Shown here one piece after another: positions 7,612 through 45,013 of a stretch of DNA of 64,000 nt (positions within the stretch are counted from its first letter, which is position 1; the number at the start of each line of letters is the position of its first letter). The translations under genes and the position numbers were made by a program. The notes beneath the pieces are model-generated. The model made no database searches. It saw nothing but the letters and a program-made list of their open reading frames with translations, and had not been told where the DNA came from. This DNA is from an uncultured Candidatus Saccharibacteria bacterium (GTDB lineage Bacteria > Patescibacteriota > Minisyncoccia > UBA6257 > WO2-44-18), in assembly GCA_964373675.1 (NCBI GenBank), contig CAYJVO010000002.1:3054-67053 (forward strand), read 5' to 3'.

Positions 7612-7640
7612 TAAAAAAAGCCGCGGTTTGATCGCGGCTG
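7612..7640 (-). terminator. rho-independent terminator of the sqd1-like gene
   Basis: On the minus strand, CAGCCGCG-ATCAAAC-CGCGGCTG is followed by TTTTTTT directly after the TAA stop. Confidence 0.7.
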
Positions 7641-17931: not shown

Positions 17932-19139
17932 TTAGGAAAAATGGCTACATCATCAAAATAAGCAGTCCCCGCAGCAGGATCAAATTCCATCCTCAATTCA
18001 TCAAACTTATCTGCTGTACCATTATTTTGGAAACTCTCTTCCGGCGTAAAAGGACCATTATCAATCCTTACCCGATATTTATCGGTTACTAAATCAAAAG
18101 ATATAAATAGAGTATGCCAGGTATTAGGAAAATATTGACCGGCCAAAGTGCCGCCACCACTCCCAACTTCGCCGGCTGGCCTCATATGCACTGAAGCCTT
18201 AGCAATACCATTTTCCCTTAAAATAGCCACAAATTTTCCGCTGCTACTAGTAGTGCGTCTCATTCTAACGCTTAAAATTCCCTTTCCCGTAATTGGGGTA
18301 AATCTTCTATCAGCGGTTGCGGTGATACCTTGGTTCTCAACGGCTTTTAGGCCCTCAAAAACAACACTGTTTTGAACATTGTATGCGTTTGAACTCCACG
18401 CATTAGTCCACCCCGCGCCACTATTATTTCCATTAAGCGGTCCAATATCATAAATATCAAAATCATCGGACACTAATGGGGTTGGCGGCGGTGGTAATGG
18501 CGGTTCTCCGGTACCGCAATCCACAGATATAGTATTAAGGATGCCAGCAGAATTTACCGTTACTTTATGACAATTAGAGCCGTCGGTATCTTTGAGAATA
18601 ACGTCATTTAAAGTACCGACTTTGGTTATTTTAGTAAAAGGCCCGACTAAAAGATCATCATTGGTAATTGTGTTATCACCGATTGTTCCTCCGGTTCCCC
18701 CATTGACCGCATTAAGAGTTGATAATATTCCCAGTCCTAAAGATAGCCGTCCCGCCACCGCATCCAAATTAGCAGAATCACCATCCCACTGCCTTCTTTC
18801 ATTAAAGGCGGTATCCCAACCAAAAGCTTTGGCGCTCAAATCCAATCCATCTATTAAGCCGGATAATTTTATATCACCGAGAACGGAAAGATTGCCAGCT
18901 ATGTCCACTTTTTCTACCGGGGCATTCGTTCCTATGCCAACTTGATCGGTTTGGGTGGTTAACCTCACAACCGTTCCGCTATCTGTCCATCCCGCTGGAC
19001 CACCTTGAGCCGGAGCGCCAGCAGGGGGCCCCTGGGCCTCGACCAACTGTGTCTCATCGTTGCGTGAAGGAAAATAAATAAACGCCGCCACAATCAAAAC
19101 TACGACAGCGAGAGCTAATAAAAAGGAGTTTTTGGTCAT
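17928..19139 (-). CDS. secreted/membrane-anchored hypothetical protein (N-terminal TM, Gly/Pro-rich linker, beta-rich C-domain)
   Basis: MTKNSFLLALAVVVLIVAAF signal anchor followed by GPPAGAPAQGGPAGW. No catalytic motif recognised. Confidence 0.4.
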   Translation of the reverse strand: MTKNSFLLALAVVVLIVAAFIYFPSRNDETQLVEAQGPPAGAPAQGGPAGWTDSGTVVRLTTQTDQVGIGTNAPVEKVDIAGNLSVLGDIKLSGLIDGLDLSAKAFGWDTAFNERRQWDGDSANLDAVAGRLSLGLGILSTLNAVNGGTGGTIGDNTITNDDLLVGPFTKITKVGTLNDVILKDTDGSNCHKVTVNSAGILNTISVDCGTGEPPLPPPPTPLVSDDFDIYDIGPLNGNNSGAGWTNAWSSNAYNVQNSVVFEGLKAVENQGITATADRRFTPITGKGILSVRMRRTTSSSGKFVAILRENGIAKASVHMRPAGEVGSGGGTLAGQYFPNTWHTLFISFDLVTDKYRVRIDNGPFTPEESFQNNGTADKFDELRMEFDPAAGTAYFDDVAIFPN

Positions 19140-20239
19140 GAATTTAATGATAGCATTTTATTGTAAATAACGTTGTATAGCTGGGCAGTTTTCCCCCAAC
19201 TCATTGAACGCGCAAAAGAAATCGAATTTTTCGACATATCAAACCTCAAATCGGGATTAGATAATATTTTCTCCATAGCGGCTGAAGCGCTCTTTGGGTT
19301 CTGCGGACTTACCAAAATGCCGTTCTTCCCGTCCCTAACCGCGTCTTCCGCGCTAGTTTCTTTAGTAGTAATCACCGGCAATCCGGCGGCCGCCGCCTCC
19401 AAGAAAACCAGTCCAAAACCTTCAATGTCTTTGTTAACATCCTGCGGCATTAATATAAAAAGCTCGGCGTTTTTATAAACCGATATCAATTCTTCCTCCG
19501 ATAAATTTTCTAAAAAAACAACCCGATCTTGATACTTGATACTTGATACTTGCCGCTGAAGCGCTTCGTACTCCGGCCCTTTCCCGACAATCACGTATTT
19601 CAAACCTGGAAACTTCTTGGCTACTTCCGCGAATGCCGCGATTGAATATTCGTATCCTTTTCGTTGCTTTAATGTTCCAACGCTTAATATATAAGGTTTC
19701 AATTTCTGGACTTCCGATGTCCCAATATTGACGTCAATGGTTTGGACATCGGAAGTCCCTGATATTGATTCGAATTTTGTAAAATCAACGCCGTGATTAA
19801 TAACAGAGATTTCCAAATCCGGCAAAAATTTCTGGATTTCTCTTTTGGTATTATTACTAACCGCTATTACCCTAAACGCTCTTTTATACGCCCATTTCAT
19901 AATCGGCCGTCTCCACCAGCTGTAAAACGGCTTAACCGCCCCGGTGCCAATGCCGGTTATAATTAGTTTTTTTCTTGATCCTAAAGATACTATGGCCGCA
20001 ATCACGCCATATGGCCAGCCATCCAAGGCATGAATAATATCGCAATATTTAAAGGCTCGACGAATACAGAAATAGAAAAAAGGTAATTGCCAACATTTTT
20101 TCGGCAAACCGCTATCATGAGTTAAAACTTCATATTGAAAATCTGGAACAATCTTTTCAAGAGCGCTGATTAGCGAATGATAAAACCGCCCGGCGCCAGT
20201 TTTATCGCTTAAATCATGATTAAGATAACAAATTTTCAT
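19136..20239 (-). CDS. GT4-family glycosyltransferase
   Basis: YVIVGKGPEYEAL...FGLVFLEAAAAGLPVITT is the GT4 C-domain signature. A heptamer-repeat-encoded loop (QVSSIKYQ) is present. Confidence 0.8.
   Translation of the reverse strand: MKICYLNHDLSDKTGAGRFYHSLISALEKIVPDFQYEVLTHDSGLPKKCWQLPFFYFCIRRAFKYCDIIHALDGWPYGVIAAIVSLGSRKKLIITGIGTGAVKPFYSWWRRPIMKWAYKRAFRVIAVSNNTKREIQKFLPDLEISVINHGVDFTKFESISGTSDVQTIDVNIGTSEVQKLKPYILSVGTLKQRKGYEYSIAAFAEVAKKFPGLKYVIVGKGPEYEALQRQVSSIKYQDRVVFLENLSEEELISVYKNAELFILMPQDVNKDIEGFGLVFLEAAAAGLPVITTKETSAEDAVRDGKNGILVSPQNPKSASAAMEKILSNPDLRFDMSKNSISFARSMSWGKTAQLYNVIYNKMLSLNS
19528..19552. repeat. heptamer tandem array (CTTGATA x3.5) inside GT4 CDS
   Basis: CTTGATACTTGATACTTGATACTTG. 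It is in-frame and encodes QVSSIKYQ. Confidence 0.8.
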
Positions 20240-24765: not shown

Positions 24766-25836
24766 TTATACGAAAACTTTTATTAGTTTTTCTATGAGGG
24801 TGGGTAAATTATGCCTCTCAATGATTAAGGTCCTCAGGCGTTTACCTATTTGTTTACGCTCTTCTTCGTTCAATATTATTAAATTTAAAATTTTATGCGC
24901 TAAATCAATCGGGTCCTGCGACTTAAACATTAATAAACGATCAAGATCGTGCGGGAAAATTTCTTTAAACGTCTCATTAGTTACTAATACCGGCAATTCG
25001 CAAGCCATCGCCTCTAAAGTAGTCTTATCAAAACTGCCAGTGCGCGTCAGGTTTACAAAAAGGTCGTGTTCATTGTAGATAATAACAGTCTGATAATTGG
25101 GGACCTTCGGACGAAATTCCACTAATGCCGGGAGATTCAATTCTTGTATTAAATTTTTAATTTTTTCATAATATTCTTTTTCATCCGGTTTGCCCGGCGT
25201 CGGCTCGCCAACGATCGTCAAACTAACATCTGACTTTGACTGTTGAATTATTGCCAGAGCGCGCAATAAAGTCTCTAAATCCTTTACCGGCGCAATCCTC
25301 CCTAAAAAAAGAACTTTGAACTTTGAACTTTGAACTTTGAACTTGAGCGGCTCAAACCGCTCTGTGTCTATTCCCTGCTGCAAAATCGTTAATTTTTTAC
25401 TTCTCAGCGGATAAGCCAGCCGAGTTGAGGTAACGATTTGATCTGCGAGCCAAGCGGCAAGCCGTAGTTTTAAATTAGCAAGATAATGCGCATACCACAG
25501 AATTATTTTTTTACCCCACAACTTCCAGAAAACTCCGCCTAAAATAATATATTCTGGATTCATATGCACAAAAACAGCGTCGTAATCATTCCTCAATCGC
25601 CAAATATATTTATAAAATCTCAAAATATAAATTAACCGTCGCATCCAATTCCTAATTCCTTCTTTACCCAACGAATACACCTTTACACTCTCCGGTAATT
25701 CCGCTCGGCCACGATAAAGACAAATCACCGAGATTTGTTTAACTCGCTGTGCCAATTCCTCAATCCAACGGTGATAGATGCCTAAAACATCATCATCTTT
25801 GTCTACTTTTTGGGTGATGAATAACAATCTTGCCAT
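24766..25836 (-). CDS. GT4-family glycosyltransferase
   Basis: FLGRIAPVKDLETL...NLPALVEFRPKV. A heptamer-encoded loop (KFKVQSSKFK) is present. Confidence 0.75.
   Translation of the reverse strand: MARLLFITQKVDKDDDVLGIYHRWIEELAQRVKQISVICLYRGRAELPESVKVYSLGKEGIRNWMRRLIYILRFYKYIWRLRNDYDAVFVHMNPEYIILGGVFWKLWGKKIILWYAHYLANLKLRLAAWLADQIVTSTRLAYPLRSKKLTILQQGIDTERFEPLKFKVQSSKFKVLFLGRIAPVKDLETLLRALAIIQQSKSDVSLTIVGEPTPGKPDEKEYYEKIKNLIQELNLPALVEFRPKVPNYQTVIIYNEHDLFVNLTRTGSFDKTTLEAMACELPVLVTNETFKEIFPHDLDRLLMFKSQDPIDLAHKILNLIILNEEERKQIGKRLRTLIIERHNLPTLIEKLIKVFV
25311..25346. repeat. heptamer tandem array (GAACTTT x5) inside GT4 CDS
   Basis: GAACTTTGAACTTTGAACTTTGAACTTTGAACTTGA. It is in-frame. Confidence 0.85.
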
Positions 25837-26975
25837 GATTTTTTAATTGCATCTAAATACTGCTGCTTAGTTGGCCAATTTTTTAAAAGGTTATTCTGCC
25901 CATCAATAACTCTCCTTCGTTCCGCGGGATTGGCTATTAACTCTTCTAAAACCTCGATGAGCCGCTTTTTGTCGCCTACCGGCACCACTCGGCCAATAGC
26001 CGCACCGACATCGGTCATAACCACCGGCAGACCGGCCGCCGCCGCCTCAACCGCCGCCAGACCGTAACCTTCGTAGTTGGAGGTCAATAAAAATAAATCC
26101 GCGGTCTTGTAATAAGAAATCAGATCATCCGTCCAGGGCTCAATAATTGCGTTATTTTGCAATTTTAAATTTTCAATTTTAAATTTTAAATTTTGGCGTT
26201 CCGGACCATCGCCAACGATCAATAACAAAGGATTTCCGACGCTTGATGCCTGACGCTTGACGCGATTAAACGCCTCGATTGCTAATCCGATATTTTTCTC
26301 TCGCGACAATCGAGAGGCCACGAGAATAATAAAATTGTGGCTCGGATATTTTCTGTGAAGATCGATCTTGATTGGAGATTTTTTTATTTTTTTAACGTCA
26401 ACAAAAATTGGCCGCACTTCAATTTTGGACTCGGGATAATCAATTTGCGAAATAACGGATTTTTTAATCCGATCACTAACTACCCGCAGGCGGTCGGCCT
26501 TTTTAATTAAAAACTTCGCCAGCAAAACCCGGATTTTATTCTTTAATGACTCCTTCGCGAAATACGGGCTTAAAAAATCCGTATGCGCTTGAAGCTCTAA
26601 CGGAATTTTGAATTTCTTTTTCAGAGGATAGCCCACTAAGCCGGTCTCAAAAGGATCCTGCGCCGTTACTAGATAATCCGAATGCTTCAAGCTTTTATCC
26701 GAATTATCCGAACTCAAAATATATTTGGCGATTTTGTAGGCATCCCAAAAATAAAAAGGCTTGAGGCGCGTATTGGTGGAATAAATCCAAGCGTTCGCAG
26801 TTATTGCTTTTTTGTTCGGGGCATTCGGATAGCGGTTCGTATTATTCGGATTATCTTTTGTGTAAACTATGATGTGCAGCTCCTCGACAAGTTGAGCGTA
26901 CTCAATCATCCTCTGCCGAACAGCCGAGTTTTCTTTAAAAATATTTGAATCTGCTGATAACATTAAAAGCCGCAT
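25803..26975 (-). CDS. GT4-family glycosyltransferase
   Basis: LLLIVGDGPERQNL...GYGLAAVEAAAAGLPVVMTDVGA is the GT4 signature. Confidence 0.75.
   Translation of the reverse strand: MRLLMLSADSNIFKENSAVRQRMIEYAQLVEELHIIVYTKDNPNNTNRYPNAPNKKAITANAWIYSTNTRLKPFYFWDAYKIAKYILSSDNSDKSLKHSDYLVTAQDPFETGLVGYPLKKKFKIPLELQAHTDFLSPYFAKESLKNKIRVLLAKFLIKKADRLRVVSDRIKKSVISQIDYPESKIEVRPIFVDVKKIKKSPIKIDLHRKYPSHNFIILVASRLSREKNIGLAIEAFNRVKRQASSVGNPLLLIVGDGPERQNLKFKIENLKLQNNAIIEPWTDDLISYYKTADLFLLTSNYEGYGLAAVEAAAAGLPVVMTDVGAAIGRVVPVGDKKRLIEVLEELIANPAERRRVIDGQNNLLKNWPTKQQYLDAIKKSWQDCYSSPKK
26161..26194. repeat. heptamer tandem array (AATTTTA x5) inside GT4 CDS
   Basis: AATTTTAAATTTTCAATTTTAAATTTTAAATTTTG. It encodes LKFKIENLKLQN. 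Confidence 0.85.
26240..26264. repeat. degenerate heptamer array (GCTTGAT/GCCTGAC/GCTTGAC) inside GT4 CDS
   Basis: GCTTGATGCCTGACGCTTGACGCG. Confidence 0.6.
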
Positions 26976-28179: not shown

Positions 28180-30477
28180 TCAATAATTGAGTGTGTTTAA
28201 AATTTCTACTAGCTTTGTCATACAATTTCCTATTGAAAATTGTTTGGCCTTTTCTTTGGCATTTCTTACTATCTTTTCTCTAAAATTCTTATCACTGCCA
28301 ATTTTTCTAATAGCGGCCAGAATTTGTTCTTTGCGGTTGGGCTCAACCAAAATCCCTTCTTTGCCGTCATCAATGATTTCGGCTAAATTGCCGATCTTGG
28401 TAGTTATAACCGGCAGGCCGGCATTCATTGCTTCCACCACCTGAAATGAAAAACTCTCAAAAGAAGTATTTAAGACAAAAACCGTCACGCTATGCAATAA
28501 TTCCAATAATTTTTCTCGTGGAACGGCATCCAAGAAATCAACTTTATTTTTGACACCTGACACCTGACACTTGACACCGAGCGCTTCACGCTCTGGCCCG
28601 TCTCCCACAATCACCAATTTCCAGTCCGGCAAATCCCGCATTAAGTCAATCAAAACATCGAACCCCTTCCACGGCACCAGACGGCCAGCCGATAGAATGG
28701 TTTTGAGTTGATGAGTTGATGAGTTGATGAGTTTTTTGGATGGCGGATTATCTAGCTGTATGCCGTTGTAGATGACTTTCACTTTTTCCGGATTTTTTAT
28801 CCAGCCGCCGACTAGTTTTTGGAAGTACTGGCTGGGAGTGATAATTATCTTGGCCTGATTGGCAACAAACTTTTGCACGCTGCGCAATAATTCTGTTCGC
28901 AATCCATATCTTTTTTGCTGAAACTCATCAATAGAATCTTTAACCCCAAAACGCTGGGCCGCCTGCTCCCAAGCATAATCGCCGGCAACTCTCATAATAA
29001 AGGGCTTTCTCAAAACCTTGGCTGCCAGCATTGCCGGCAATCCTACGCTGACTGGATCCTGCGAATAAACAATGTCATTCCTCCGCGCCCTTAACAGACA
29101 TTTGAAAAAATAAATCAAATGGCGAATGCCAATCGGCCAGCGCCTGACAACCCGAAAGGGCAGAACCGCGATGCTCATTCCGTGCTTCGGCAATTCTTTT
29201 TCCAAAAGAGCGGTGTAAGTTGCCGGACCGCCGATCTCCGGAGGATAAATTCCGGTAGCTACTAAAAGTCGTGTAATTGGTAATTTGTAATTGGTAATTA
29301 GAGCTTGGAAAATATTTTTAATTTTTGATGCAATTTTGTCCCAGGAATAATTTTCTAAAACTAGCTTTCTTCCATTTTCAGCTATTTTGTTTCTTAGAAT
29401 ATCATTTTCCATCAAACCTTTTATCTTTCCAGCCACATCCTTAAAGTCATCAACTTGACAAAAAAGGCCCGTCTCGCCATCCTTTAAGAAATCAGAAATT
29501 CCCCCAACTGGAGTTCCGATAATTGGCAAGCCGGCCGCCATGGCTTCCAAAAAAGAATTGCCTAATCCTTCGGAACGAGATGGTCTTACAAAAATATCTG
29601 CCCCAGCCAAATAATTCGGTATCTTGTCCGGATCAACGTGGCCCAGAAACTCAATTTTGTCGGCTACTCCTAAATCCGAGGCTAGCTTTTTTAACTTTTC
29701 TTCATCTGGTCCAGAACCTAAAACCTGACACCTGATACTTGACACCTGATACTTCTTTAATTCTGCTACAGTTCGAATTAACGTATCAATGCCATTTTTA
29801 TGAACTAACCGCGAAGTTGTTATAAGGGTATAGGGTTTAGCGTTTAGGGTTTTAGATTTTTCACTATACGCCATACGCTTAACGCTAAACGCTTCAACAT
29901 TCACGCCATTCGGCACTACTTCAATCGGACACCTGGCTCCGTGCCGTCGCGCAAAATCCATCAGATAATTGCTGATTACTTGAATATAATCGGCCTTTTT
30001 GAATAAAAACCGCCACAAAGGATAAAAAATCCCCACCCGCCTCAAAATATGCGATTCGCTATCCCCCTCCTGCAGCGTAAGAAGAAGCGGGATGGACGGA
30101 TGCCGCAACTTGAAAAAAAGCGCGGCCATGCCGCCATAAGAAGCCATTATTGCCCAAATTAACTTAAAGGACTTTTTTTTGTGTTCTTGCTCTGCCGTTC
30201 GCCAAGCGCGAAAAGCGTACAAAATTTTTTTAAAAAAGTGGCCGTAATAATCGTGCTGGTTGAGGCCGCCGCTCCCGATCCTAATTACCTCAACATTGCT
30301 TATCTTTTCCCGCGAAAGCCAATGCCGGTCAAATTTGTAGGTAAAACAAAAAAAATTATCATCCGGCAGCCGATCAGTAATTTCTTTAACTGCCACTTCC
30401 GCGCCTCCCACGAAAGGAAAATAAGCGGTGCTGAAAATAACGATTTTAGGACTCATAAATCTTTTCTGTTTCTTCAA
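28180..30477 (-). CDS. tandem double GT4 glycosyltransferase (two GT-B units, 765 aa)
   Basis: Two GT4 signatures: VLGSGPDEEKL...GLGNSFLEAMAAGLPIIGT and VIVGDGPEREAL...SFQVVEAMNAGLPVITT. The gene contains five heptamer/octamer arrays in loop positions. Confidence 0.75.
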   Translation of the reverse strand: MKKQKRFMSPKIVIFSTAYFPFVGGAEVAVKEITDRLPDDNFFCFTYKFDRHWLSREKISNVEVIRIGSGGLNQHDYYGHFFKKILYAFRAWRTAEQEHKKKSFKLIWAIMASYGGMAALFFKLRHPSIPLLLTLQEGDSESHILRRVGIFYPLWRFLFKKADYIQVISNYLMDFARRHGARCPIEVVPNGVNVEAFSVKRMAYSEKSKTLNAKPYTLITTSRLVHKNGIDTLIRTVAELKKYQVSSIRCQVLGSGPDEEKLKKLASDLGVADKIEFLGHVDPDKIPNYLAGADIFVRPSRSEGLGNSFLEAMAAGLPIIGTPVGGISDFLKDGETGLFCQVDDFKDVAGKIKGLMENDILRNKIAENGRKLVLENYSWDKIASKIKNIFQALITNYKLPITRLLVATGIYPPEIGGPATYTALLEKELPKHGMSIAVLPFRVVRRWPIGIRHLIYFFKCLLRARRNDIVYSQDPVSVGLPAMLAAKVLRKPFIMRVAGDYAWEQAAQRFGVKDSIDEFQQKRYGLRTELLRSVQKFVANQAKIIITPSQYFQKLVGGWIKNPEKVKVIYNGIQLDNPPSKKLINSSTHQLKTILSAGRLVPWKGFDVLIDLMRDLPDWKLVIVGDGPEREALGVKCQVSGVKNKVDFLDAVPREKLLELLHSVTVFVLNTSFESFSFQVVEAMNAGLPVITTKIGNLAEIIDDGKEGILVEPNRKEQILAAIRKIGSDKNFREKIVRNAKEKAKQFSIGNCMTKLVEILNTLNY
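28551..28578. repeat. heptamer tandem array (TGACACC x4) inside double-GT4 CDS
   Basis: TGACACCTGACACCTGACACTTGACACC. It encodes GVKCQVSGVK. Confidence 0.85.
28704..28733. repeat. octamer tandem array (TGAGTTGA x3.5) inside double-GT4 CDS
   Basis: TGAGTTGATGAGTTGATGAGTTGATGAGTT. It encodes LINSSTHQLK. Confidence 0.8.
29274..29301. repeat. heptamer tandem array (TAATTGG x4) inside double-GT4 CDS
   Basis: TAATTGGTAATTTGTAATTGGTAATTAG. Confidence 0.8.
29724..29754. repeat. heptamer tandem array (CCTGAYA x4.4) inside double-GT4 CDS
   Basis: CCTGACACCTGATACTTGACACCTGATACTT. It encodes KYQVSSIRCQV. Confidence 0.85.
29832..29858. repeat. heptamer tandem array (AGGGTTT x4) inside double-GT4 CDS
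   Basis: AGGGTTTAGCGTTTAGGGTTTTAGATT. Confidence 0.7.
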
Positions 30478-32219: not shown

Positions 32220-32300
32220 TCCCGCCCTCGCTGGTGCGAGGGCGGGACGCTAACTAATTAAGATCTCAAGCTCGTCCGCCTTTGGCGGAGATTACCCTAA

Positions 32301-35300: not shown

Positions 35301-36083
35301 TTTAACTACAAAAGAATCGGTGAGTTTTAGACGGTGGTCGGATCCAAAGGTTTTGGCATCGCCAATGCGAACGCCGTCTTCATCCAAATGAACTACTCCG
35401 CTAAAAGCGGCATCATTACCCTGACCAGTCCTCTCAACTGTCAAAGACTTAACGGTAACATCGCCATCAGCCGATGCAGTTAATAATAATTTAGTAAATG
35501 GTCGGCTGGCGAATGATTCGCCGAATAGTCCTGAAACTGGTTGATCAGGAGCCAAAGTAACAGTCAAACCAGTACCCGTACCCGGCGTTGGAGCCGGAGC
35601 TGGGGCTGGAGCCGGAGCTGGGGCTGGAGCCGCTGCCAGCGAAGCATACTTAGCCCGAGATTTAGAACCAAAGTATCCTGCCGCTGGAGAAACGGCGCTA
35701 GCCGCCTGCCACTTGGCAACAGCAGATTGAGACAACGAACCAAAATAGGTCGTCTCATTGCCGGACGAACCAGAGCCGCTTGACGCTACCGGATATCCGG
35801 ATGCGTTAAGATATTGCTGCAAGCATTTCACGTCATCCCCTCTTACACCCACGGTGAGGTCGCGAGTGAAATTGCAAGAAACAGAAACGCCTGCGCCGGC
35901 CTGAGCCGTGGCTAATTTTGCCTGCAATTGCTGAATCTGAGCTAACAAGGCATTAATTTGAACTTGCAGCTCAGACACGCTCTGCGCGTGAGCTATTGGA
36001 ATCAGCATCGCTGATCCAGATAGCCAAATCGCCGTTGTCGCTGAAAGGACAACAGACGAAATTTTCTTAGTTAAATTACTCAT
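32301..36083 (-). CDS. large cell-surface protein (signal anchor, coiled-coil, peptidoglycan-binding domain, (PA)n linker, long Thr/Ser/Gly/Asp-rich beta domains)
   Basis: 1260 aa with an N-terminal hydrophobic anchor and a coiled-coil segment (LQVQINALLAQIQQLQAKLATAQAG). A PG-binding-like segment follows (GDDVKCLQQYLNASGYPV...FGSLSQSAVAKWQAA), then PAPAPAPAPAPAP. The remainder is low-complexity and beta-rich. Confidence 0.7.
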   Translation of the reverse strand: MSNLTKKISSVVLSATTAIWLSGSAMLIPIAHAQSVSELQVQINALLAQIQQLQAKLATAQAGAGVSVSCNFTRDLTVGVRGDDVKCLQQYLNASGYPVASSGSGSSGNETTYFGSLSQSAVAKWQAASAVSPAAGYFGSKSRAKYASLAAAPAPAPAPAPAPAPTPGTGTGLTVTLAPDQPVSGLFGESFASRPFTKLLLTASADGDVTVKSLTVERTGQGNDAAFSGVVHLDEDGVRIGDAKTFGSDHRLKLTDSFVVKAGQTRTITLAGDSDSDQNDYNGQLITLTLVGVETNGAAVNATFPLTGNVMTVNSTLTIGSVTLDVGPLDPRNNVTKEIGTKGYIFTALKMTAGSNEDVLVKSVRLNQSGSAATSDLGNTKIYLDGVAYDVEISSDGKYYTAKFGSGVKIEKGLNKEVYIKGDILSGSNRTIDFDLYRLADVKVTGLTYGYDILPIGSGEAAADSTDDDNDFQTNNPRYDASQATIGAGTLTVEKATAVVSQNIAENLGDQPLGGFLADVKGEDITTAAMNFDVALTEAAGTGGSIDTNDITNIKLLDENGNVIAGPVDGQAGYNNAIRFTDTVTLKVGRHVYKLVGKLGTDFSQNDQIQASTTANGDWTTVRGLSTAQTITPGGGTVTMSAMTMKTADLRVTISTDTATTSPDQNVVRGTNAYSFAKYVLDATESGEDVKVTQMVLDLTTSYPANTADELSNCQLFDGATVITSGSNTVNPTNDDAAGADKTFTLDTGLVIPKGTSKILTLKCNLTAGGTSEFVGWGLINAASTIVSTGVTSGTSLSETITADNGRTIIPQTSGTLTLSLDSASPGLKLVQAGTVDQTLAVFRLDAIYEDIRLDQIGLQIASSSSDNGQANASNSPSDLTKVTLWDGATKVGEAIFSSDYATATLTGFTVPKDTQKLLTVKADIAPIGVNLSQAVPGHLLTINWDGGWGDAPDDDAAEGEQGLKATGISSGSTIYNGADDDAVDADTNSSGGRIVKAIPTLTKLATSGKFSNTSDQILYRFKVEAPAGTNGVSLYKFTFNLSTNTTSVTQPSDTAVFAVTNLRAFCYSDSGFSLGSCGSSSGLLNQFGLAIADGNEANRDFDASGGDGTVTDADSDVDVPVLFNPTDTSGATAAAIRIPAGETRWFELKADVTGASSTPTITTKLLGDAAWNAVQCDAAATENVVSACDYSQTAAASSAAGRFAATASLIDALVEADEDFIWSDNATNTTQSIASDDWFTGFLLSGLPTVSMSSEVLSF

Positions 36084-38718: not shown

Positions 38719-41353
38719 CTTTAATTTGTCCCTTAATCATCCAGTCAGCCAGCTGATCAAGAACAGCTTTTTGGATCAAGCGCTTAATCGGCCGCGCGCC
38801 GTAATCGGGATCAAATCCGTTTTTTATAATGTACTTTTTCGCCGCTTCGTCAACAGCGATTTTAATGTTACGCTCGGCTAATTTTCTTCTCACCAAATCC
38901 AATTGAATATCCACGATTTTTCCAATATCCTCCGGTTTCAATGAATTAAACACAATTATCTCATCCAGCCGGTTCAAAAATTCCGGTTTAAAGGTCTGTT
39001 TTAATGAAGTCAACGCCCGTTCTTTAAAATCGGCTTCCTTATTAAGAAATTCGTTCTGGTCGCCATTGCCAAAACCCATTTGCGCCATCTCCTTAAAATA
39101 CTGACTGCCGACATTGGAGGTCAAAATAATAATAGTATTTTTAAAATTCACCGTTCGTCCTTTGGCGTCAGTCAACCGGCCGTTATCCAAAATCTGAAGC
39201 AGAATGTTAAAAACCTCCGGATGAGCTTTTTCAATCTCATCAAACAAAATCAAACTGTACGGCCGGTGGCGAATAGCTTCCGTTAATTGTCCGCCCTCTT
39301 CAAAACCAACGTATCCGGGTGGGGAACCAATCAACCTTGCTACGGCGTGCTTTTCCATGTACTCCGACATGTCAATTCTCACCAGCGCTTTTTCATTGTT
39401 AAACATAAATTCCGCCAATGCTCTGGCTAATTCGGTTTTGCCGACACCGGTCGGCCCCAGAAACATAAAGGAGCCGAGGGGGCGATTTTCATCCGCTAAT
39501 CCGGCGCGGGCTCGCCGCAAAGCGTTGGCAACAGCGCCCAGCGCTTCTTTTTGACCAACCACGCGATCAGATAAAACTTCTTCAATTTTGGAAAGTTTTT
39601 CGCTTTCCGTCTCTAACATTTTTGTTATTGGAATGCCGGTCCAACGCGAAACCACTGCCGCAATATCCTCTTCATCCACCGCTTCTTTAATAAATCCTTC
39701 TCCACCTCCGGTTCGGTACGGGGCATGCTTTTGACCCCGCACCAGAACCTCCGGTTCGGTACGGAGCATACTTTTGGTAAAGTGTTTCTTCTCAAACACT
39801 TTATAATCTTTCTCTGCCGCCGGCAGTTTGCCATAAATAATCTGCGCCACTCGTTCCAAATCGCCTCCCCTTTCTGCCAACTCTGCCTCGCGCCGCAAAT
39901 CTTCAATTTTTTTGCGCAAATTATGCAAATTTTCAAAAGCTAATTTTTCCGAATGCCAAACTGCCGAAAGTTCGTCATTCTTTTCTTTTAATTTCGCTGC
40001 CTCCTTGTCAATCGTTTTAATCCGCTCTTTGCTTTTAGCTAATGATTCTTTGTTTAAGGCCGACCGTTCCACCTCCAATCGGGTAATATCACGCCTGATT
40101 TTATCTATCTCCGCCGGCAGGCTTTCGGTCTCCAGTCTTCGAGCGGCCGCCGCCTCGTCAATCAAATCCACTGCCTTATCCGGCAAAAAGCGATCCGAAA
40201 TGTACCGGGCAGAGAGATTAACTGCGGCCATTAAAGCTTCTTCGCTGATCCGCAAGCCGTGATGAATTTCGTATTTTTCTTTCAAGCCGCGCAAAATCGC
40301 CAGCGCATCTTCAATGCTTGGTTCCTCTACCATAACCGGCTGGAAACGCCGCTCCAACGCCGGGTCCTTTTCAATATGACGCTGGTATTCTCTGATGGTG
40401 GTAGCGCCAATGCAATGAAGTTCTCCCCGCGCTAGCGGCGGTTTTAAAATATTGGAAGCATCCACCGCTCCCTCGGCAGCTCCGGCGCCGACGATCATAT
40501 GAATCTCGTCAATAAACAAAATCAATCGGCCGGCTGAATTCTGAATTTCCTTAATAAACGCCTTTAAACGATCTTCAAATTCACCGCGGAATTTCGTGCC
40601 GGCGATCAAAGAGCCGAGATCCAGCATGACAATCTCCCTGTCTTTTAAAGTCTCTGGAACATCGCCGCTAACAATCCGCTGAGCTAATCCTTCAACAATT
40701 GCCGTTTTGCCAACGCCCGACTCGCCGATTAAGACCGGGTTATTTTTAGTGCGCCGAGACAACACCTGGATTAAACGACGCAATTCGTCTTCACGGCCGA
40801 TTACCGGATCCAATTTGCCTTCTTTAGCCTTGTCAGTAAGATTAACGGCATATTTATCCAAAACCTGAAATTTGCTTTCCGGCATCTCGTCGGTTATATG
40901 CATAGAACCCCGAAGTTGTGCCAGCGTCCTAAACGCCGATTCCCGGTGTAAACCGAACTTATCCAAAATCCGCTTTGCGCTGGAAACCACTTCCATAATG
41001 CCCACCAACAAATGCTCGCAGGAAATATACTCATCTTTTTGAGATAAAGCGATTTTGCCGGACCGGTCTAAAATCTGCATCAGCTCTTGAGAAAGGTACA
41101 ACTGTCCGACAGCTGAATGTGCCGACAAAATCTTCGGCATTTTTCGCATCTCCTCCTCAATTTCCGCATCCAAAGCTTCCAAATTAATCCCGGATTTAAT
41201 CAAAATCGGGCGAACCAGCGACTGTTCGTCAGTAATTAAAGCGGAAAGTAAATGGACGGCCTTGAATTCGCCGTGGTTTTTCCGAGCGGCCAAATCTTGA
41301 GCATTTTGCAATGCTTCTTGGGCCTTAATGGTAAAACGATTAAAATTTCTCAT
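38663..41353 (-). CDS. clpB: ATP-dependent chaperone ClpB
   Basis: 896 aa with Clp N-domain, two AAA+ modules (GESGVGKT; [15 protein letters not shown]) and a coiled-coil middle domain. Confidence 0.9.
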
Positions 41354-41464
41354 GCTAACGCAAATAATGCTAACCTACGAATTTACACGAATGCCACGAA
41401 TTATTTGCGTATTCGCATATATTCGCATTGTTTGCATTATTTAATTTAGTTTAATAATAACAAA

Positions 41465-41491
41465 TTAGCACTCCCATTGCAAGAGTGCTAA
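41465..41491. promoter_or_regulatory. CIRCE operator (HrcA-binding inverted repeat) upstream of clpB
   Basis: TTAGCACTC-CCATTGCAA-GAGTGCTAA is a perfect match to the CIRCE consensus TTAGCACTC-N9-GAGTGCTAA. It lies about 115 nt upstream of the clpB start and overlaps the stop of the cysteine desulfurase gene. Confidence 0.8.
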
Positions 41492-42822
41492 CAAGATTTT
41501 TCGCCAACTATTTTTTCTAATATTTTCACAAAATAATCAATTTCCTTTTTAATTGTCTGCCGTCCAAAAGTAATCCGCAAACTTCCCAGAGCTCGCTCAT
41601 CCAAAAATCCCATTGCCTTCAGCACCGGCGATGGCTGAACAACTCGTGCTGAACAGGCGACGCCGGAAGAAACCGCAATGCCGACCAGGTCCAATTTTAT
41701 AACCAATTCATGCGCCTTTTGGCCGGGAAAATAAATATTCAAATTATTGGGAACGCGTTTCTCTAAAAAACCGTTAAGCTGGACCGCTGGGGCTTTTTTT
41801 AACTTTTTCCAGCAATAATCCCGTAATGTCCGAACTCGCTTTGCTTCTCTATTTCTTAGCGCTCTAGAAATCTCTACGGCTTTACCAAAACCGACTATTG
41901 AAGGCGTATTTGGCGTTCCGGACCACAAACCGCCCGGCTCCTGTCCCCCGCCGGTAACTATAGGCAAAATGGGTAATGTAAAATGCGACCTGGAATTTTT
42001 ATTCTGTTCTTGTCGCTTGTCGCTTGTCTCATTAAACATTTTCCCAACATACAACGCTCCAATTCCCTTAGGACCGTAAATCTTGTGCGCCGACAAAGTC
42101 ATTAAATCAACGCCCAGCTGATCAACATTGCAGTTTAAATACTGAAAGGCCTGAACGGCGTCGGTGTGGAGAAGGGGGTAGAATGTAGAATTTTGAATAT
42201 TGAATTTAGGATTTTTATTTTTCCAATATTCTATATTCTGTATTCTATATTCTTGAATCGCTTCGGCGATTTCCGCAATTGGCTGAATGGTCCCCACCTC
42301 ATTATTCACATACATCACTGAAACCAAAACCGTCCGCTCGTTGAGGGCGGTTTCTAATTTTTTCAAATCAACGAAGCCATCGCGCGAAACCGGAATATAA
42401 ACCACTTCCACGCCTTCTTTTTCCAAATCTTTCGCCGTTTCCAAAACCGACGCGTGTTCAAAAGCTGAAATGATAAGGCGAGGAGTTAGAATATGGGATT
42501 TAGAATCTAGGGATTTTTTATTTTTAGAAAGAGCCCCGTTCCTCAATCCTATATTCTGAATTCTAAATTCTTTTATTGCTCCCCGCAGCGCCAAATTATT
42601 CGCTTCCGTCGCCGACCCCGTAAAAATTATTTCATCGTATTTAGCGCCAATCGCTTCGGCAATTGTCTTGCGGGCCTTAAAAATAGCGGCCGACGCCTCT
42701 TGTCCAAGTTGGTGTACTGATCCTGCGTTCCCATAAACTTCGCTAAAATACGGGTTCATGGCCGCTTTAACATGTTTATCCACCGGTGCTGACGCCGCGT
42801 AATCTAAATACATACGTTTCAT
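41488..42822 (-). CDS. cysteine desulfurase (IscS/NifS family) with three low-complexity insertions
   Basis: Class V aminotransferase fold with SAHKIYGPKGIGALYV (PLP-Lys region) and the C-terminal SSGVACS active-site Cys loop. Three insertions are encoded by heptamer arrays at 41993-42030, 42178-42258 and 42486-42573. Confidence 0.8.
   Translation of the reverse strand: MKRMYLDYAASAPVDKHVKAAMNPYFSEVYGNAGSVHQLGQEASAAIFKARKTIAEAIGAKYDEIIFTGSATEANNLALRGAIKEFRIQNIGLRNGALSKNKKSLDSKSHILTPRLIISAFEHASVLETAKDLEKEGVEVVYIPVSRDGFVDLKKLETALNERTVLVSVMYVNNEVGTIQPIAEIAEAIQEYRIQNIEYWKNKNPKFNIQNSTFYPLLHTDAVQAFQYLNCNVDQLGVDLMTLSAHKIYGPKGIGALYVGKMFNETSDKRQEQNKNSRSHFTLPILPIVTGGGQEPGGLWSGTPNTPSIVGFGKAVEISRALRNREAKRVRTLRDYCWKKLKKAPAVQLNGFLEKRVPNNLNIYFPGQKAHELVIKLDLVGIAVSSGVACSARVVQPSPVLKAMGFLDERALGSLRITFGRQTIKKEIDYFVKILEKIVGEKSC
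42178..42258. repeat. palindromic pair of heptamer arrays (GTAGAAT... / ...ATATTCT) inside cysteine desulfurase CDS
   Basis: GTAGAATGTAGAATTTTGAATATTGAAT ... AATATTCTATATTCTGTATTCTATATTCT around a TTTTATTTTTCC centre. It is in-frame. Confidence 0.8.
42486..42573. repeat. second palindromic heptamer-array pair (TAGAATA/TGGGATT ... ATTCTGA/ATTCTAA) inside cysteine desulfurase CDS
   Basis: TAGAATATGGGATTTAGAATCTAGGGATT TTTTATTTTTAG ... AATCCTATATTCTGAATTCTAAATTC. It is in-frame. Confidence 0.8.
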
Positions 42823-42888
42823 ACAAGTATCTTATTATCTTTGACAAGCATTACAAAATAGTATAATTTATCTGTAAAATCAATTCTT

Positions 42889-43371
42889 ATGCAATTATTG
42901 TTTAACAATTCCCTTGGCGCCAAACTAACCCCTGATGATGTCATCGGCGAAATAATCAAATTCATGAACGCTGATCCTCATCGCTGTTATAAAGTCATCA
43001 TCGGAACTGATTCGGAGCGTTCCGCTGACAACACCGCCGATTTTGTAACGGCAATTGTCATTCACCGCTTAGGAAATGGCGGGCGATACTTTTGGCGACG
43101 GATTGAACCAAAAACCAAATATCACACCTTAAGGGGCCGCATCACTGGAGAAGTTTTGATGTCTTTGGACATTGCCCGGGAATTACTTCAGGCTATGAAA
43201 AATTACCAAGTTCCGAAATTTGATTTTGAAATTCATGTGGATGTTGGGGAAAACGGCGCGACTAAAACAATGATTCAGGAACTAGTCGGCATGATTCGGG
43301 CTAATAATTTTGAAGCCAAAACCAAACCCGAAAGCTACGCCGCCAGCAAAGTCGCGGACCGCCATATTTAG
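42889..43371 (+). CDS. RNase H-like fold protein (YkuK/DUF458-like)
   Basis: 160 aa. The KVIIGTDSE strand with a catalytic-type Asp resembles the DUF458 family. Assignment is from memory of the family motif. Confidence 0.35.
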   Translation: MQLLFNNSLGAKLTPDDVIGEIIKFMNADPHRCYKVIIGTDSERSADNTADFVTAIVIHRLGNGGRYFWRRIEPKTKYHTLRGRITGEVLMSLDIARELLQAMKNYQVPKFDFEIHVDVGENGATKTMIQELVGMIRANNFEAKTKPESYAASKVADRHI

Positions 43372-43398
43372 TTTCAAGTTTCAGGTGTCAGGTATCAA
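43369..43398. repeat. heptamer array (reverse orientation; AGTTTCAGGTGTCAGGTATCAAG) 5' of four-helix-bundle gene
   Basis: Reverse complement is CTTGATACCTGACACCTGAAACT. Confidence 0.75.
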
Positions 43399-43402
43399 GT
43401 AA

Positions 43403-43759
43403 ATGGAAAAGGGTTATAAAAAATTGATGGCCTACCGCGAAGGTCACAAATTAGTTCTGCAAACTTATCTTGCAACTAGTAAGTTTCCTAAGTCAGAATT
43501 ATTCGGACTTGTTTCTCAAATGCGTAGGGCGGCGGTGTCTGTGGTGGCAAACATCTTAGAAGGCCAGGCCAGAATAAGTAAAAAGGAATTTAAAAATTTC
43601 ATCTCTATCACTAATGGATCCCTTGTTGAATTGGAATATTATCTTGAACTATCACGAGAATTGAATTACATTAACAGGAACGATTATGAGGAAGTAGAAA
43701 AGCAAAGAGCTCTTACTGGCTCTTTATTGGGTGGATTACTTCGTTACCTTAAATCTTAA
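43403..43759 (+). CDS. four-helix-bundle protein (23S rRNA intervening-sequence protein family; Avd-like)
   Basis: 118 aa. YREGHKLVLQTY...LVSQMRRAAVSVVANILEG...NGSLVELEYYLELS matches the TIGR02436-type four-helix-bundle family. Confidence 0.7.
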   Translation: MEKGYKKLMAYREGHKLVLQTYLATSKFPKSELFGLVSQMRRAAVSVVANILEGQARISKKEFKNFISITNGSLVELEYYLELSRELNYINRNDYEEVEKQRALTGSLLGGLLRYLKS

Positions 43760-43830
43760 CTTGACACCTGACACCTGATACCTGATACCTGACACATAAC
43801 ACCTGACACCTGATACATGATACATGACAC
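43759..43830. repeat. heptamer array, about 10 units (CTTGACA CCTGACA CCTGATA ... CATGACA), 3' of four-helix-bundle gene and overlapping start of next ORF
   Basis: Direct reading of 43759-43830. This is the longest array in the window, in the opposite orientation to 43369-43398. Confidence 0.85.
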
Positions 43831-44386
43831 TTTAGTAATTGATATTGAAACCAAAAATACCTTCGCCGAAGTCGGCGGTCAAGAAAATGTCAAAAAGTTA
43901 GATGCCTCTTTTGTGGGCGTCTATTCGTATAATCAAAACAAGTACCTGTCATTTTTTGAAAATCAATTTGGCGAACTTAACAAGTTTTTAAAAACTGCCG
44001 GATTAATAATTGGCTTTAGTATTAACCGCTTTGACATTCCGGTTTTAGAAAAATATTTAGACTTTAATATTTGGTCCATTCCCCGTCTAGATCTTTTAGA
44101 AGAAATTGAAATTGGTTTTGGCAATCGGATTAGTTTGGATGTGCTGGCGAAAACTAATTTAGGCATCGGCAAAACCCACCACGGCCTAGAAGCGATCAAA
44201 TTTTATAAAGAGCGAAATTGGAAAGAGCTGGAAAGCTACTGCCTTAATGACGTGAAAATCACCAAGGAACTTTACGAACTCGCCAAAAAACAAAAGCACC
44301 TCTCCATCCCCGACCGCACCACCGGCGTTTTAACAAAGGTGAACTTTAACTTTCCCGAAATCATCTTCCCGCAAACGCTTTTATAA
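43817..44386 (+). CDS. DEDDy-type 3'-5' exonuclease domain protein
   Basis: LVIDIETKN is Exo I (D-x-E), and YCLNDVKITKELYE is the Exo III Y-x3-D. 189 aa. Confidence 0.5.
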   Translation: MIHDTLVIDIETKNTFAEVGGQENVKKLDASFVGVYSYNQNKYLSFFENQFGELNKFLKTAGLIIGFSINRFDIPVLEKYLDFNIWSIPRLDLLEEIEIGFGNRISLDVLAKTNLGIGKTHHGLEAIKFYKERNWKELESYCLNDVKITKELYELAKKQKHLSIPDRTTGVLTKVNFNFPEIIFPQTLL

Positions 44387-44411
44387 AAAACCCCAACCGG
44401 GCTAGTTGGGG
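44384..44411. terminator. bidirectional hairpin terminator
   Basis: AAAAAA-CCCCAAC-CGGGCTA-GTTGGGG. On the minus strand the hairpin is followed by TTTTTTAT. Confidence 0.6.
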
Positions 44412-44607
44412 TAGATGAGAATGAGGTTTTGGTCTCCGTTTTTTATTTGTTCGGCTGTTCCGCTTATGAAAGTTTGGCGGGCTACCGTTTTTTTTTGAAT
44501 TTTGGCCTTACTAAACAGAGACCGGGCTCTTAAAGAGAAACTATCAAGGGACTAAATTAATAATATAAAAACCTGCCAGAATCACCAGGTGGGGGATGTG
44601 GATAATT

Positions 44608-44937
44608 CTAATCGTCGCAGTGATGGTTGCCGTGCCCATGGCAATGTCCGCAATGATTACATGGCGTATGCTGATGAGTCTGGCTCTGATTCTGGTTTTG
44701 ATTTTGACTCTGAGACTGCTTAACGCTAACACTGTTTCTTACTTCCACGCGTGTCTGATTAATGACGGGCGGCGGCACATAAACATTGCTATTAGTAAGA
44801 CCCAATGCAATTCCCACATTCCAGCCCACATTCCCGTCCTGATCGCCATTAACGCCGGCATAAGGCGTCATTCCGTAATGCCAACCCTGACAGCCAATAG
44901 TCGCTGCCAGCAAAACCGCGACTGGCACAAATCTCAT
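44608..44937 (-). CDS. small secreted His/Cys-rich (metal-binding?) lipoprotein-like protein
   Basis: Good SD (AGGAGA 6 nt upstream). N-terminal signal with LAATIGC lipobox-like sequence, a QSQSQNQNQNQSQ linker and C-terminal CNHCGHCHGHGNHHC. The fully overlapping plus-strand ORF lacks these features. Confidence 0.5.
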   Translation of the reverse strand: MRFVPVAVLLAATIGCQGWHYGMTPYAGVNGDQDGNVGWNVGIALGLTNSNVYVPPPVINQTRVEVRNSVSVKQSQSQNQNQNQSQTHQHTPCNHCGHCHGHGNHHCDD

Positions 44938-45013
44938 GATTTTCTCCTGTAAAAAGCCGGCTGGTATAATATCACATCTACAAAATAATGCAAGCCCCCA
45001 CGCCTAATAAGCG

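Follow-up and report, generated by a model that had tools for sequence, protein, structure and literature searches.

Why does an enzyme gene keep five or six short tandem repeats whose units, at 7 or 8 nt, are not multiples of three? The question is raised by a fused double GT4 glycosyltransferase gene at positions 28180–30477 of the 64-kb window (the whole stretch of DNA analysed here, 64,000 nucleotides of contig CAYJVO010000002.1), which has a GC content of 43% and whose homologues place the lineage in the Parcubacteria/Patescibacteria, part of the Candidate Phyla Radiation (CPR). Repeats with units of such lengths are usually purged from genes or act as ON/OFF switches; here hundreds of them are kept inside the enzymes of a CPR lineage. 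The tracts are real, specific to a period of 7, widespread in a lineage of Parcubacteria and mostly intragenic, and they are held open for translation by selection. The explanation favoured here, with moderate confidence, is that the arrays are inherited, homogenised and translated heptanucleotide microsatellites and not demonstrated switches, and the most informative result is the conservation and apparent concerted evolution of arrays that occupy the same site in different species.

The host gene (coordinates of all features are given in Table 1) probably starts at the ATG at 30456 (MSPKIV...). A Pfam search of its open reading frame (ORF) found two Glyco_transf_4 and two Glycos_transf_1 domains (E = 8e-83), that is, two complete GT4 modules, and the gene has the attributes of a GT4 enzyme of the GT-B fold, with both domain sets full and the GxGP and EX7E motifs kept in the alignment. 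The AlphaFold model of the protein comprises two GT-B modules with a mean predicted local distance difference test (pLDDT) score of 85, and homologues with 41–65% identity occur throughout the Parcubacteria/Patescibacteria. The gene contains five clear arrays (four 7-mers and one 8-mer) and a sixth weak one. The five had been reported in frame in an earlier note on this DNA and were all recovered at the positions given there, inside an intact ORF. That note had also assigned every array to loops flanking the GT4 motifs, a description that held in part: of the five, only two are next to a GxGP motif; the others comprise two in linkers that join an N- to a C-domain and one at the junction of the modules. 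In the AlphaFold model the assignment to loops broke down for array 1, which lies within an amphipathic helix (H630–640) after the GDGP of module 2, and for array 4, which covers a loop and the core strand E248–254 just before the GSGP of module 1. Arrays 2 and 5 are in the interdomain linkers of modules 2 and 1, respectively, in loops of low pLDDT (579–589 and 204–211), and array 3 is modelled at the end of helix H379–396, exactly where the two GT4 modules meet. At four related loci (L079, L081, L055, and L075) each module has an ORF of its own next to that of the other, and the fused genes bear an array at the fusion point. The orthologue in L001 is the closest (65% aa identity) and contains six arrays, among them the 8-mer of array 2 at the orthologous site (11778–11807); the peptides of arrays 5 and 6 are both found in P0011 and P0003. 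The best protein-database match to the double GT4 gene is only 65%, whereas the cysteine desulfurase of the window matches P0186, on a 72-kb contig, at 100%, so that the GT4 gene may be uncalled or differently called in the public annotation of the genome.

The window as a whole contains about 18–20 arrays (17 of period 7 and the 8-mer in our own scan, with a few weaker ones added by Tandem Repeats Finder, TRF) built from at least 10 different units. The family of about 18 arrays described in the earlier note was present, and the examples that it named at 19528 (CTTGATA), 25311 (GAACTTT), 26161 (AATTTTA), and 42009 (CTTGTCG) were all found again; it had correctly placed arrays in other coding sequences (CDSs), the number of which has to be changed from six to seven ORFs (three GT4 genes, a cysteine desulfurase, two ORFs of a phosphoglucomutase/phosphomannomutase (PGM/PMM), and the D-Ala-D-Ala ligase Ddl). 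Exact arrays of at least 2.5 copies were compared with dinucleotide-preserving shuffles of the window: seven had a period of 7, against 0.03 in the shuffles, and none had a period of 6 or 9. In a first survey set of 82 sequences (the window and 81 related loci, 1.52 Mb), 124 period-7 arrays were counted, against 2 in shuffles, and periods 6, 8, and 9 gave 21, 4, and 2; at least one array was present in 46 of the 82 sequences, and some related lineages had none. The unusual density and shared period claimed for the arrays are thus those of a real, lineage-specific family, with period 7 far above the shuffles. An independent Logan assembly of the same organism (L162) is 100% identical to the window over 40574–45047, including a 66-nt array, and the arrays are therefore not an assembly artefact.

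An enlarged, de-duplicated set of 152 loci (2.34 Mb) contained 205 period-7 arrays, 184 of them (∼90%) in CDSs, at a coding fraction of 0.925. Their length has a sharp peak at 30–34 nt, equivalent to 4.3–4.9 units, and the histogram of lag-7 run lengths is bimodal, being almost empty between the background tail and this mode. The arrays in CDSs have 4.0–4.9 units, apart from two with ∼7.5, and most 8-mer arrays are 27–30 nt long. Intergenic arrays also have a period of 7, and some are longer (45, 66, and 141 nt). A purely protein-level filter for heptad-compatible peptides was considered as the source of the period and is weakened by these intergenic arrays. Array density is 3.31 per 10 kb in the focal gene and 2.10 in other GT4-like genes, against 0.08 in other genes (1.46 Mb). 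Per unit length, GT4 genes thus hold 26–40 times as many arrays as the genes around them, and most of the seeming exceptions outside GT4 also proved to be GT-B enzymes. The enrichment test for glycan genes that the earlier note had proposed accordingly came out strongly positive for the GT4 genes in this set. Hosts other than glycosyltransferases are cysteine desulfurase, PGM, and Ddl, together with spacers such as that between rplV and rpsC. Within the window, arrays are missing from ∼20 further genes of the glycan cluster, from the fifth GT4 gene, and from a glycogen synthase of family GT5. The lineage uses 98 distinct units, where 158 ± 4 were expected.

Because 7 leaves a remainder of 1 on division by 3, a stretch of three units (21 nt) passes through each of the reading frames and yields peptides with a 7-residue period, such as GVKCQVS, KLQITNY, NLKFKIE, and NFQFPIS, so that a tract of ∼4.5 units (30–34 nt) encodes 10–11 residues. 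Units of 7 and 8 nt inside an intact ORF also mean, as the earlier note had stated for the 7-nt unit, that the gain or loss of a single unit would shift the frame. A perfect array would contain an in-frame stop in 63 of the 184 CDS arrays, and each of these codons is broken by about one substitution. In array 5 one unit is altered from TAA to TAT, and in the array at 26161 one unit is altered from TAA to GAA. The deviation rate per position in CDS arrays was 0.359 in would-be stop codons and 0.037 elsewhere. Stop-containing units are also depleted, with 66 seen against 102 ± 5 expected for composition-matched units.

Comparison of arrays at the same site in different species indicated that they are inherited. 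Co-located pairs agreed to within two substitutions in 30% of cases when compared in phase and in 4% when the same pairs were taken out of phase. The array is identical over 30/30 nt in L002, L003, and L083, where synonymous identity is 0.32–0.36 and aa identity 59–61%; L054 and L086 agree at 30/30 nt and L012 and L032 at 32/33 nt. Array 3 of the window matches the array at the same site in L094 at 26/27 nt, in genes that are 64% identical in aa and have a synonymous-site identity of 0.40. The genes with these near-identical arrays share 59–70% protein identity, the third positions of their conserved four-fold codons being at or near saturation. Where arrays differ, they differ throughout: the unit is AATTTAA in L001 and AAGTTAA in L018, with a common patch of the stop codon to GAA, and AATCTCA in L054 and AATTTCA in L093. 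Consensus differences amount to 0.296 per unit position, compared with a heterogeneity within arrays of 0.051. The phase relation, together with differences that run through all units, indicates an inherited array that is continually homogenised. Moreover, because each base of the unit falls in turn on codon positions 1, 2, and 3, a homogenised array has no synonymous sites, and purifying selection on the peptide would consequently freeze the DNA of the array.

The place of the arrays in the protein was investigated by measuring the segment between conserved anchor columns in array-bearing and array-free orthologues. In 44 aligned orthologues, 43 arrays fell in about nine hot spots, and the median length difference between the two classes was 0 aa. 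It was exactly 0 for 9/9 arrays in the helix following GDGP, where the segment with array 1 has the same length as in array-free orthologues, and for 2/2 arrays in helix 262–277, −2 to +2 aa at the site preceding GxGP (the hot spot of array 4), and −6 to +17 aa in variable loops. The length comparison rules out, for the constrained sites, that the arrays are insertions of three extra units (+7 aa). Hallmarks of insertions resembling miniature inverted-repeat transposable elements (MITEs), repetitive extragenic palindromes (REPs), or small dispersed repeats (SDRs) were also missing, with no added length at constrained sites, no target-site duplication, and no terminal structure seen. In array-free orthologues the hot spots are left with no trace of a lag-7 signal (0.281, compared with 0.289 for lag 6 and 0.266 for lag 8). 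The idea that they carry old arrays in decay was accordingly rejected, and the arrays are thus either crisp or absent.

In the explanation favoured here, the uniformity of each array would be kept by slippage or gene conversion within the array, that is, by concerted evolution, and the length changes that survive would come in steps of three units (21 nt, 7 aa), the size of the sole exact-unit indel seen between strains. The specificity for 7 nt would probably stem from a bias in polymerase slippage of the kind proposed for heptanucleotide simple sequence repeats (SSRs) elsewhere, and the arrays would be by-products tolerated at permissive or heptad-compatible positions. The selfish simple-sequence family that the earlier note had offered as its second option comes nearer to this than contingency loci do and is right as to lineage specificity; it omits the length neutrality, the in-phase orthology, and the concerted evolution under selection for an open frame. 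If the explanation holds, the arrays would be a clean natural case of concerted evolution that couples three reading frames and suppresses synonymous drift, and a caution for annotation and for analyses of the ratio of nonsynonymous to synonymous substitution (dN/dS) in CPR genomes.

Several observations weigh against inherited, homogenised microsatellites. The 26–40-fold concentration in GT4 genes is not what a general mutational bias combined with tolerance would lead one to expect; it calls for a further assumption, for instance that rare births were passed on through a large family of paralogues. The appearance of arrays at constrained sites with no change in length, and the lack of intermediate or decaying ones, are a poor fit to stepwise slippage. 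Identical arrays at non-homologous sites and in both orientations, together with the shortfall of units (98 against 158 ± 4), hint at copying or at a biased source. The 34-mer of the array at 26161, which encodes NLKFKIENLKL, occurs identically in four genes of three genomes (the window, twice in L001, and L108), a fifth gene (L005) having 33/34 nt, and always after GDGPE. Perfect arrays are 30–34 nt long and not 28–29 nt, and 8-mer arrays 27–30 nt, the total length being steadier than the copy number. Homogenisation by the gain and loss of single units would have to pass through frame-shifted intermediates, and the strain evidence described below rests on assemblies, in which rare switching would be missed. 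The birth of arrays without length change and the choice of GT4, cysteine desulfurase, and PGM genes as hosts fall outside what the explanation accounts for.

Some of these points are met by the alternative that survives best, although it is unlikely overall: the arrays would be copied or written, by a mobile or a templated process, as arms or footprints of small cassettes or as patches of ∼32 nt copied from master arrays. A candidate cassette lies in the window itself. An ORF for a four-helix-bundle protein of the type named 23S rRNA intervening sequence protein (IVP; Avd-like) has an RNaseH-like gene on one side and an RNase_H_2-like gene on the other, and is bracketed by two arrays whose inverted arms (43371–43403 and 43756–43788, 33 nt) are 85% complementary; the region looks like a small cassette or an element resembling an intervening sequence. 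The unit family of its 66-nt right arm is that of arrays 1 and 4 and of the arrays at 19528, 45519, 45999, and 46350. In other words, TGAYACC, the commonest unit family of the window (about seven sites), is also that of the cassette arms, and the arrays of the window outside glycosyltransferase genes cluster within 3 kb of the cassette. Three IVP-like genes were found in 2.3 Mb (window, L014, and L064); all are flanked by inverted arms with a 7-nt period, and two of the three have an array no more than 2 nt away. Genes of a second kind, GxxExxY (TIGR04256, PD-(D/E)XK), are also flanked by inverted repeats (L001:14162–14548, L001:15959–16345, L075:6785–7171, and L012:912–1292). One is in frame inside a GT4 gene just before the GDGP strand, and that of L075 occupies the GT4–GT4 junction, the site of array 3 in the window; as GxxExxY genes are thus present in two GT4 array hot spots (L001 and L075), array hot spots are also cassette insertion sites.

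Copying would also account for the identity of arrays across genes, species, non-homologous sites, and orientations, for the small vocabulary of units, for the lack of added length at constrained sites where arrays are crisp or absent, and for a total length of ∼30–34 nt even for 8-mers. Exact 24-mers common to arrays form 20 clusters across genes, sites, and orientations, for which convergence under periodicity and peptide constraint is a possible cause, and units are shared modestly more often within a genome (0.164) than between genomes (0.099), a value reached in 1 of 500 permutations. In L005, a 21-nt GC-rich hairpin (GCCTGCCTGCCGGTAGGCAAG, peptide ACLPVGK) is inserted at one and the same point, AAAATT^GAAAATT, in two arrays that belong to different genes (∼10186–10207 and ∼12555–12576). 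Against copying stand the lack of target-site duplications and of terminal structure, the use of 98 different units, and the in-phase orthologous arrays with unit-wide changes and shared stop-patches, a pattern that indicates vertical descent. As a source of footprints the cassettes are few, with 3 IVP and 4 GxxExxY genes in 2.3 Mb for ∼205 arrays. No reverse transcriptase, transposase, or integrase was detected by Pfam in window ORFs of at least 100 aa, and of a diversity-generating retroelement only the Avd-like four-helix-bundle ORF is present, with no reverse transcriptase among the same ORFs.

Two families, TCCGCC-N3-4-GGCGGA and CCTGCCGGYAGGCAGG, recur across loci (e.g. L102:2613–2631), some copies in frame in hot spots; the window copy (32275–32289) is intergenic and terminator-like. 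Small dispersed repeats of Nostoc, palindromic mobile inserts of ∼21–27 nt that are nested in other repeats, were reportedly described by Elhai et al. in 2008, and serve here as a lead only. The comparison concerns the nested hairpins of L005 and the TCCGCC..GGCGGA hairpins in hot spots and not the heptamer arrays.

It is quite unlikely that the arrays are instead functional nucleic acid, i.e. periodic DNA or mRNA selected as a platform for a regulator, as a translation or processing signal near gene starts, or as homology patches of at least 30 nt for recombination between glycosyltransferase genes. The conservation of their DNA beyond the need of the protein is consistent with such a role, but the reading of each unit in three frames together with homogenisation explains frozen DNA more simply. 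Intergenic arrays end at downstream starts (43370 and 43762 in the window, nth|IVP in L014, and rplV|rpsC in L023), resembling the TAACTGA repeats of Beggiatoaceae; arrays lie upstream of tRNA-His in two genomes; and arrays coincide with module boundaries and with the point of fusion in the double GT4 gene, with identical 34-mers in paralogues of one locus. The units are, on the other hand, too diverse for one sequence-specific binder. An Rfam scan of the window returned two tRNAs only and matched no RNA family at the arrays. As for recombination, the arrays that L005 shares have no extended similarity beyond the tract, and neither conversion tracts nor chimeras were seen. In L014 (687–717, nth|IVP) and L023 (7199–7227, rplV|rpsC) the array fills the spacer and supplies the upstream gene with its C-terminal tail and its stop; it ends at the downstream start codon, where a ribosome-binding site is expected. 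An intergenic array of TAACTGA itself, with ∼5 units, is present at L083:1737–1771.

Equally improbable are the contingency loci that the earlier note had put forward. Slippage by one unit would in this case toggle glycosyltransferases OFF and ON, as in neuO, and second-order selection for switchable surface glycans (e.g. against phages or for host attachment) would keep the repeats pure. A unit length that is not a multiple of 3, the strong enrichment in GT4 genes, and a repeat purity kept between species beyond neutral expectation agree with this view. Strain and OFF-allele comparisons were made on assembled sequences and protein clusters, with close pairs among the related loci and 90%-identity protein clusters as proxies, and consensus assemblies would mask minority OFF variants. 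For the window itself a metagenome scan gave nothing closer than 66% aa identity, the sole other contig of this organism (L162) being identical. Nine arrays could be compared between relatives at 95–99.3% nt identity, and all but three were identical. One of the three was replaced by a related tract with a GC-rich hairpin (net +9 nt) and one, an intergenic AT tract, differs by 8 nt. The third, L004:1067–1097, has 4.4 units of AATTTTC against 1.4 in L091 (strains 99.3% identical), a difference of exactly 21 nt accompanied by two adjacent base changes. This array is located 10 nt upstream of tRNA-His, the same relative position as the tRNA-His tract of the window; being intergenic, it is not under frame selection, and a deletion between direct repeats of 10 nt at a spacing of 21 nt may account for the difference. 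Changes of one or two units were found in none of the nine. Nine strain variants of one orthologue are likewise all 773 aa long with both arrays intact, and five further clusters behave alike. The variation in unit number among strains that the earlier note had looked to was therefore confined to a single exact unit-step indel, of three units and intergenic.

Nor did alleles truncated by ±1 unit appear. When one or two units were added or removed in silico, only 1 of 213 arrays was linked to an intragenic frame break, in contrast to the VNTR (variable number of tandem repeats) of neuO in E. coli K1, where the number of units runs from 3 to 53, with a mode of 20, and changes within cultures, and where 42 of 64 genomes (66%) are OFF; the known heptanucleotide switches, Haemophilus influenzae tracts included, have 13–53 units (PMC13001214, PMC2651432), compared with 4–5 here. 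The arrays share with neuO a 7-nt unit in a CDS, a frame that depends on copy number, a heptad of residues for every three units, and, in part, surface-glycan enzymes as hosts, and differ in being short, stable between strains, and several to a gene; the resemblance is one of coding geometry only and not of behaviour. Five or six arrays spread along a gene are also unlike a single tract near the 5′ end, and the hosts include cysteine desulfurase, PGM, Ddl, and spacers such as rplV|rpsC, while the other glycan genes listed above lack arrays. Of the attributes of a contingency locus, the coding repeat with a unit that is not a multiple of 3 is present; single-unit variation, common ON/OFF alleles, and a long tract are not. 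The claim of contingency loci with truncating alleles is thus opposed by the rarity of frame breaks, by stable strains, by short arrays, and by housekeeping hosts.

The one frame break is at L081:6586–6617, where a GT4-like gene shifts frame exactly at an AAAATTT-type array and removal of two units yields an ORF of 337 aa, a point in favour of switching. The restored ORF is without part of the Glycos_transf_1 profile, and candidate explanations of the break are an OFF allele, a pseudogene, and a sequencing error. Other candidates for OFF alleles were discarded: those of L014 and L023 proved to be the spacers between different genes described above, and the split pair P0144 + P0146 is broken in the EX7E motif and not at an array.

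A dedicated CPR system that writes, copies, or maintains heptamer tracts of ∼32 nt at defined sites of GT4, cysteine desulfurase, and PGM genes is very doubtful. If it existed, the Avd-like and GxxExxY nuclease cassettes with their array arms might take part, and it would amount to a new form of targeted protein or locus remodelling, with length-neutral rewriting of loops and helices and with homology patches of at least 30 nt for the fusion and shuffling of glycosyltransferase modules. Chance low complexity or an assembly artefact, to which the moderate AT-richness of the window and some A/T-only units might seem to point, is virtually excluded by the shuffles (0.03 against 7 and 2 against 124), the specificity for period 7, the independent assemblies, and the presence of arrays in dozens of species.

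Inherited and homogenised microsatellites of this type have precedents in part. The closest is the set of repeats of Geobacter metallireducens (Gmet_H4##), with four tandem heptanucleotides (five at 15 sites) at dozens of loci (PMC2700814). They resemble the present arrays in tract size and in being intragenic, sometimes several to a gene, as well as intergenic. They differ in having one GC-rich unit (GGACCGG) in one genome, and were read as regulatory RNA; the present arrays use at least 10 units in the window and 98 in the lineage, mostly A/T-rich, and are concentrated in gene families, with compatibility with translation demonstrated and concerted evolution between species indicated. The TAACTGA repeats of Beggiatoaceae, cyanobacteria, and Bacteroidetes have 2–6 copies, many just upstream of start codons, including those of ribosomal-protein operons, and a few “reverse” copies are translated (LSVISYQ) (PMC4679880). 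Like the arrays studied here, these repeats can adjoin start codons and are now and then translated, and L083 carries TAACTGA itself; in contrast, that family has a single unit, is overwhelmingly intergenic, and enters genes only at protein termini, whereas the arrays described here are mostly internal to enzymes, structured elements included.

Among SSRs more generally, as summarised at second hand in PMC4679880 from Mrazek et al. 2007, longer units in repeat-rich prokaryotes are predominantly heptamers, for which slippage promoted by a polymerase contact of ∼7 nt has been proposed, and units that are multiples of 3 dominate inside genes. The arrays are similar to such long heptanucleotide SSRs in being lineage-specific and dispersed, and differ from the survey in the near-absence of periods 6 and 9 and in the location of 90% of the heptamer arrays within CDSs. 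With regard to what defines heptanucleotide SSRs and the short tandemly repeated repetitive (STRR) sequences of cyanobacteria, over-representation, dispersal, and lineage specificity are all found here, and a mainly intergenic location and a few fixed units are not; as to location, the Geobacter elements, some of which are intragenic, are an exception too. Cyanobacterial STRR sequences are mainly intergenic and have few fixed units. A literature search found no report of such arrays in the CPR. Their 7-nt specificity, quantal tract size, family preference, and links to cassettes and hairpins make the puzzle of bacterial heptamers (STRR, TAACTGA, and Geobacter) testable in a data-rich group.

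Table 1. Arrays of the 64-kb window and the features that contain or adjoin them; copy numbers follow the unit, and aa positions refer to the double GT4 protein.
Feature	Start	End	Strand	Unit and copies	Peptide, host, or remark
Host gene	28180	30477	(-)		Fused double GT4 (GT-B) glycosyltransferase, 765 aa from TTG, one uninterrupted ORF
Array 1	28551	28577	(-)	TGACACC x3.9 on + strand; coding strand GGTGTCA	aa 634–643, GVKCQVSGVK
Array 2	28704	28733	(-)	8-mer TGAGTTGA x3.75, perfect; coding strand TCAACTCA	aa 582–592, LINSSTHQLK
Array 3	29273	29299	(-)	GTAATTG x3.9; coding strand CAATTAC	aa 393–402, LITNYKLPIT
Array 4	29715	29749	(-)	ACCTGAC/ACCTGAT/ACTTGAC, ~4 units	aa 243–255, YQVSSIRCQVLGS
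Array 5	29825	29852	(-)	AGGGTTT x4; coding strand AAACCCT	aa 209–218, KTLNAKPYTL
Array 6 (weak)	29875	29894	(-)	ACGCTTA x2.9, TRF score 33	aa 195–201, EAFSVKR
GT4 array	19528	19552	(-)	CTTGATA x3.6	Gene 19136–20239; QVSSIKYQD, after GKGP
GT4 array	25311	25344	(-)	GAACTTT x4.9, perfect	Gene 24766–25836; KFKVQSSKFKVL
GT4 array	26161	26194	(-)	AATTTTA x4.9	Gene 25803–26975; QNLKFKIENLKL, directly after GDGPE
Cysteine desulfurase arrays	42009	42253	(-)	42009–42028 CTTGTCG; 42178–42205 and 42226–42253 ATATTCT	Gene 41488–42822
Intergenic array, left arm	43370	43401	(+)	..AGTTTCA, GGTGTCA, GGTATCA..	Between RNaseH-like gene stop and IVP ATG
IVP ORF	43403	43759	(+)		Four-helix-bundle, TIGR02436 / PF05635, “23S rRNA intervening sequence protein”, Avd-like
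Intergenic array, right arm	43762	43827	(+)	TGACACC/TGATACC x9.4, 66 nt	Overlaps next gene start (43817)
PGM/PMM arrays	45519	46376	(-)	TGAYACC family: 45519–45543, 45999–46028, 46350–46376	In split gene
tRNA-His tract	56737	56768	(-)	AAAATCC AAATAAC x2.3, 7/14-nt periodicity	~10 nt upstream of tRNA-His
Ddl array, weak	60238	60263	(-)	CTCTATC x3.7	D-Ala-D-Ala ligase 60103–61005; low score, least certain member

Elsewhere in the window, the region from 0.7 to 32 kb is a large glycan-biosynthesis cluster with a radical SAM gene, a deacetylase, epimerases, cytidylyl- and nucleotidyl-transferases, several methyltransferases, a glycerophosphotransferase, and five GT4 genes, and the remainder holds housekeeping genes, e.g. 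ClpB, FtsK, RecA, Ddl, glycogen synthase, cysteine desulfurase, and PGM. The unit of the GT4 array at 19528 is also found in L001 (10595–10625), and the gene at 25803–26975 has an additional weaker array at 26238–26263. In the cysteine desulfurase gene there are weaker tracts at 42482–42516 and 42545–42571, and homologues of this enzyme from many Parcubacteria have 7-aa-periodic peptides in the same four loops. The PGM/PMM gene is split into two ORFs, one for domain I (46159–46614) and one for domains II–IV (45227–46162), with a stop/start overlap, GTGA, at 46159–46162; no array was detected at the break, for which a frameshift, a pseudogene, and a gene truly in two parts are all conceivable.

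Repeats of other kinds were also observed. A direct repeat of at least 53 nt (CACAATTTTTTATCAGCAAATCTTCGTAGCAATAGCAGTTTAACGCGTTAAAC) is present at 6978–7030 and 45018–45070, both copies being intergenic and 38 kb apart, and L162 ends inside it. The intergenic region 6930–7641 contains a complex 12/24-nt tandem repeat (CTATAAACTGTG, ∼7 copies, 7170–7410), a 16-nt repeat (TCCGAAAAAAATGAACC), and a perfect hairpin, and the window has three copies of the palindrome GCCGAGTC(W)GACTCGGC (5151, 7436, and 7553). At 35589–35632, a gene for a 1260-aa protein with a peptidoglycan-binding domain carries 2.4 copies of the 18-nt tandem repeat TGGAGCCGGAGCTGGGGC, an ordinary in-frame repeat unrelated to the heptamers.

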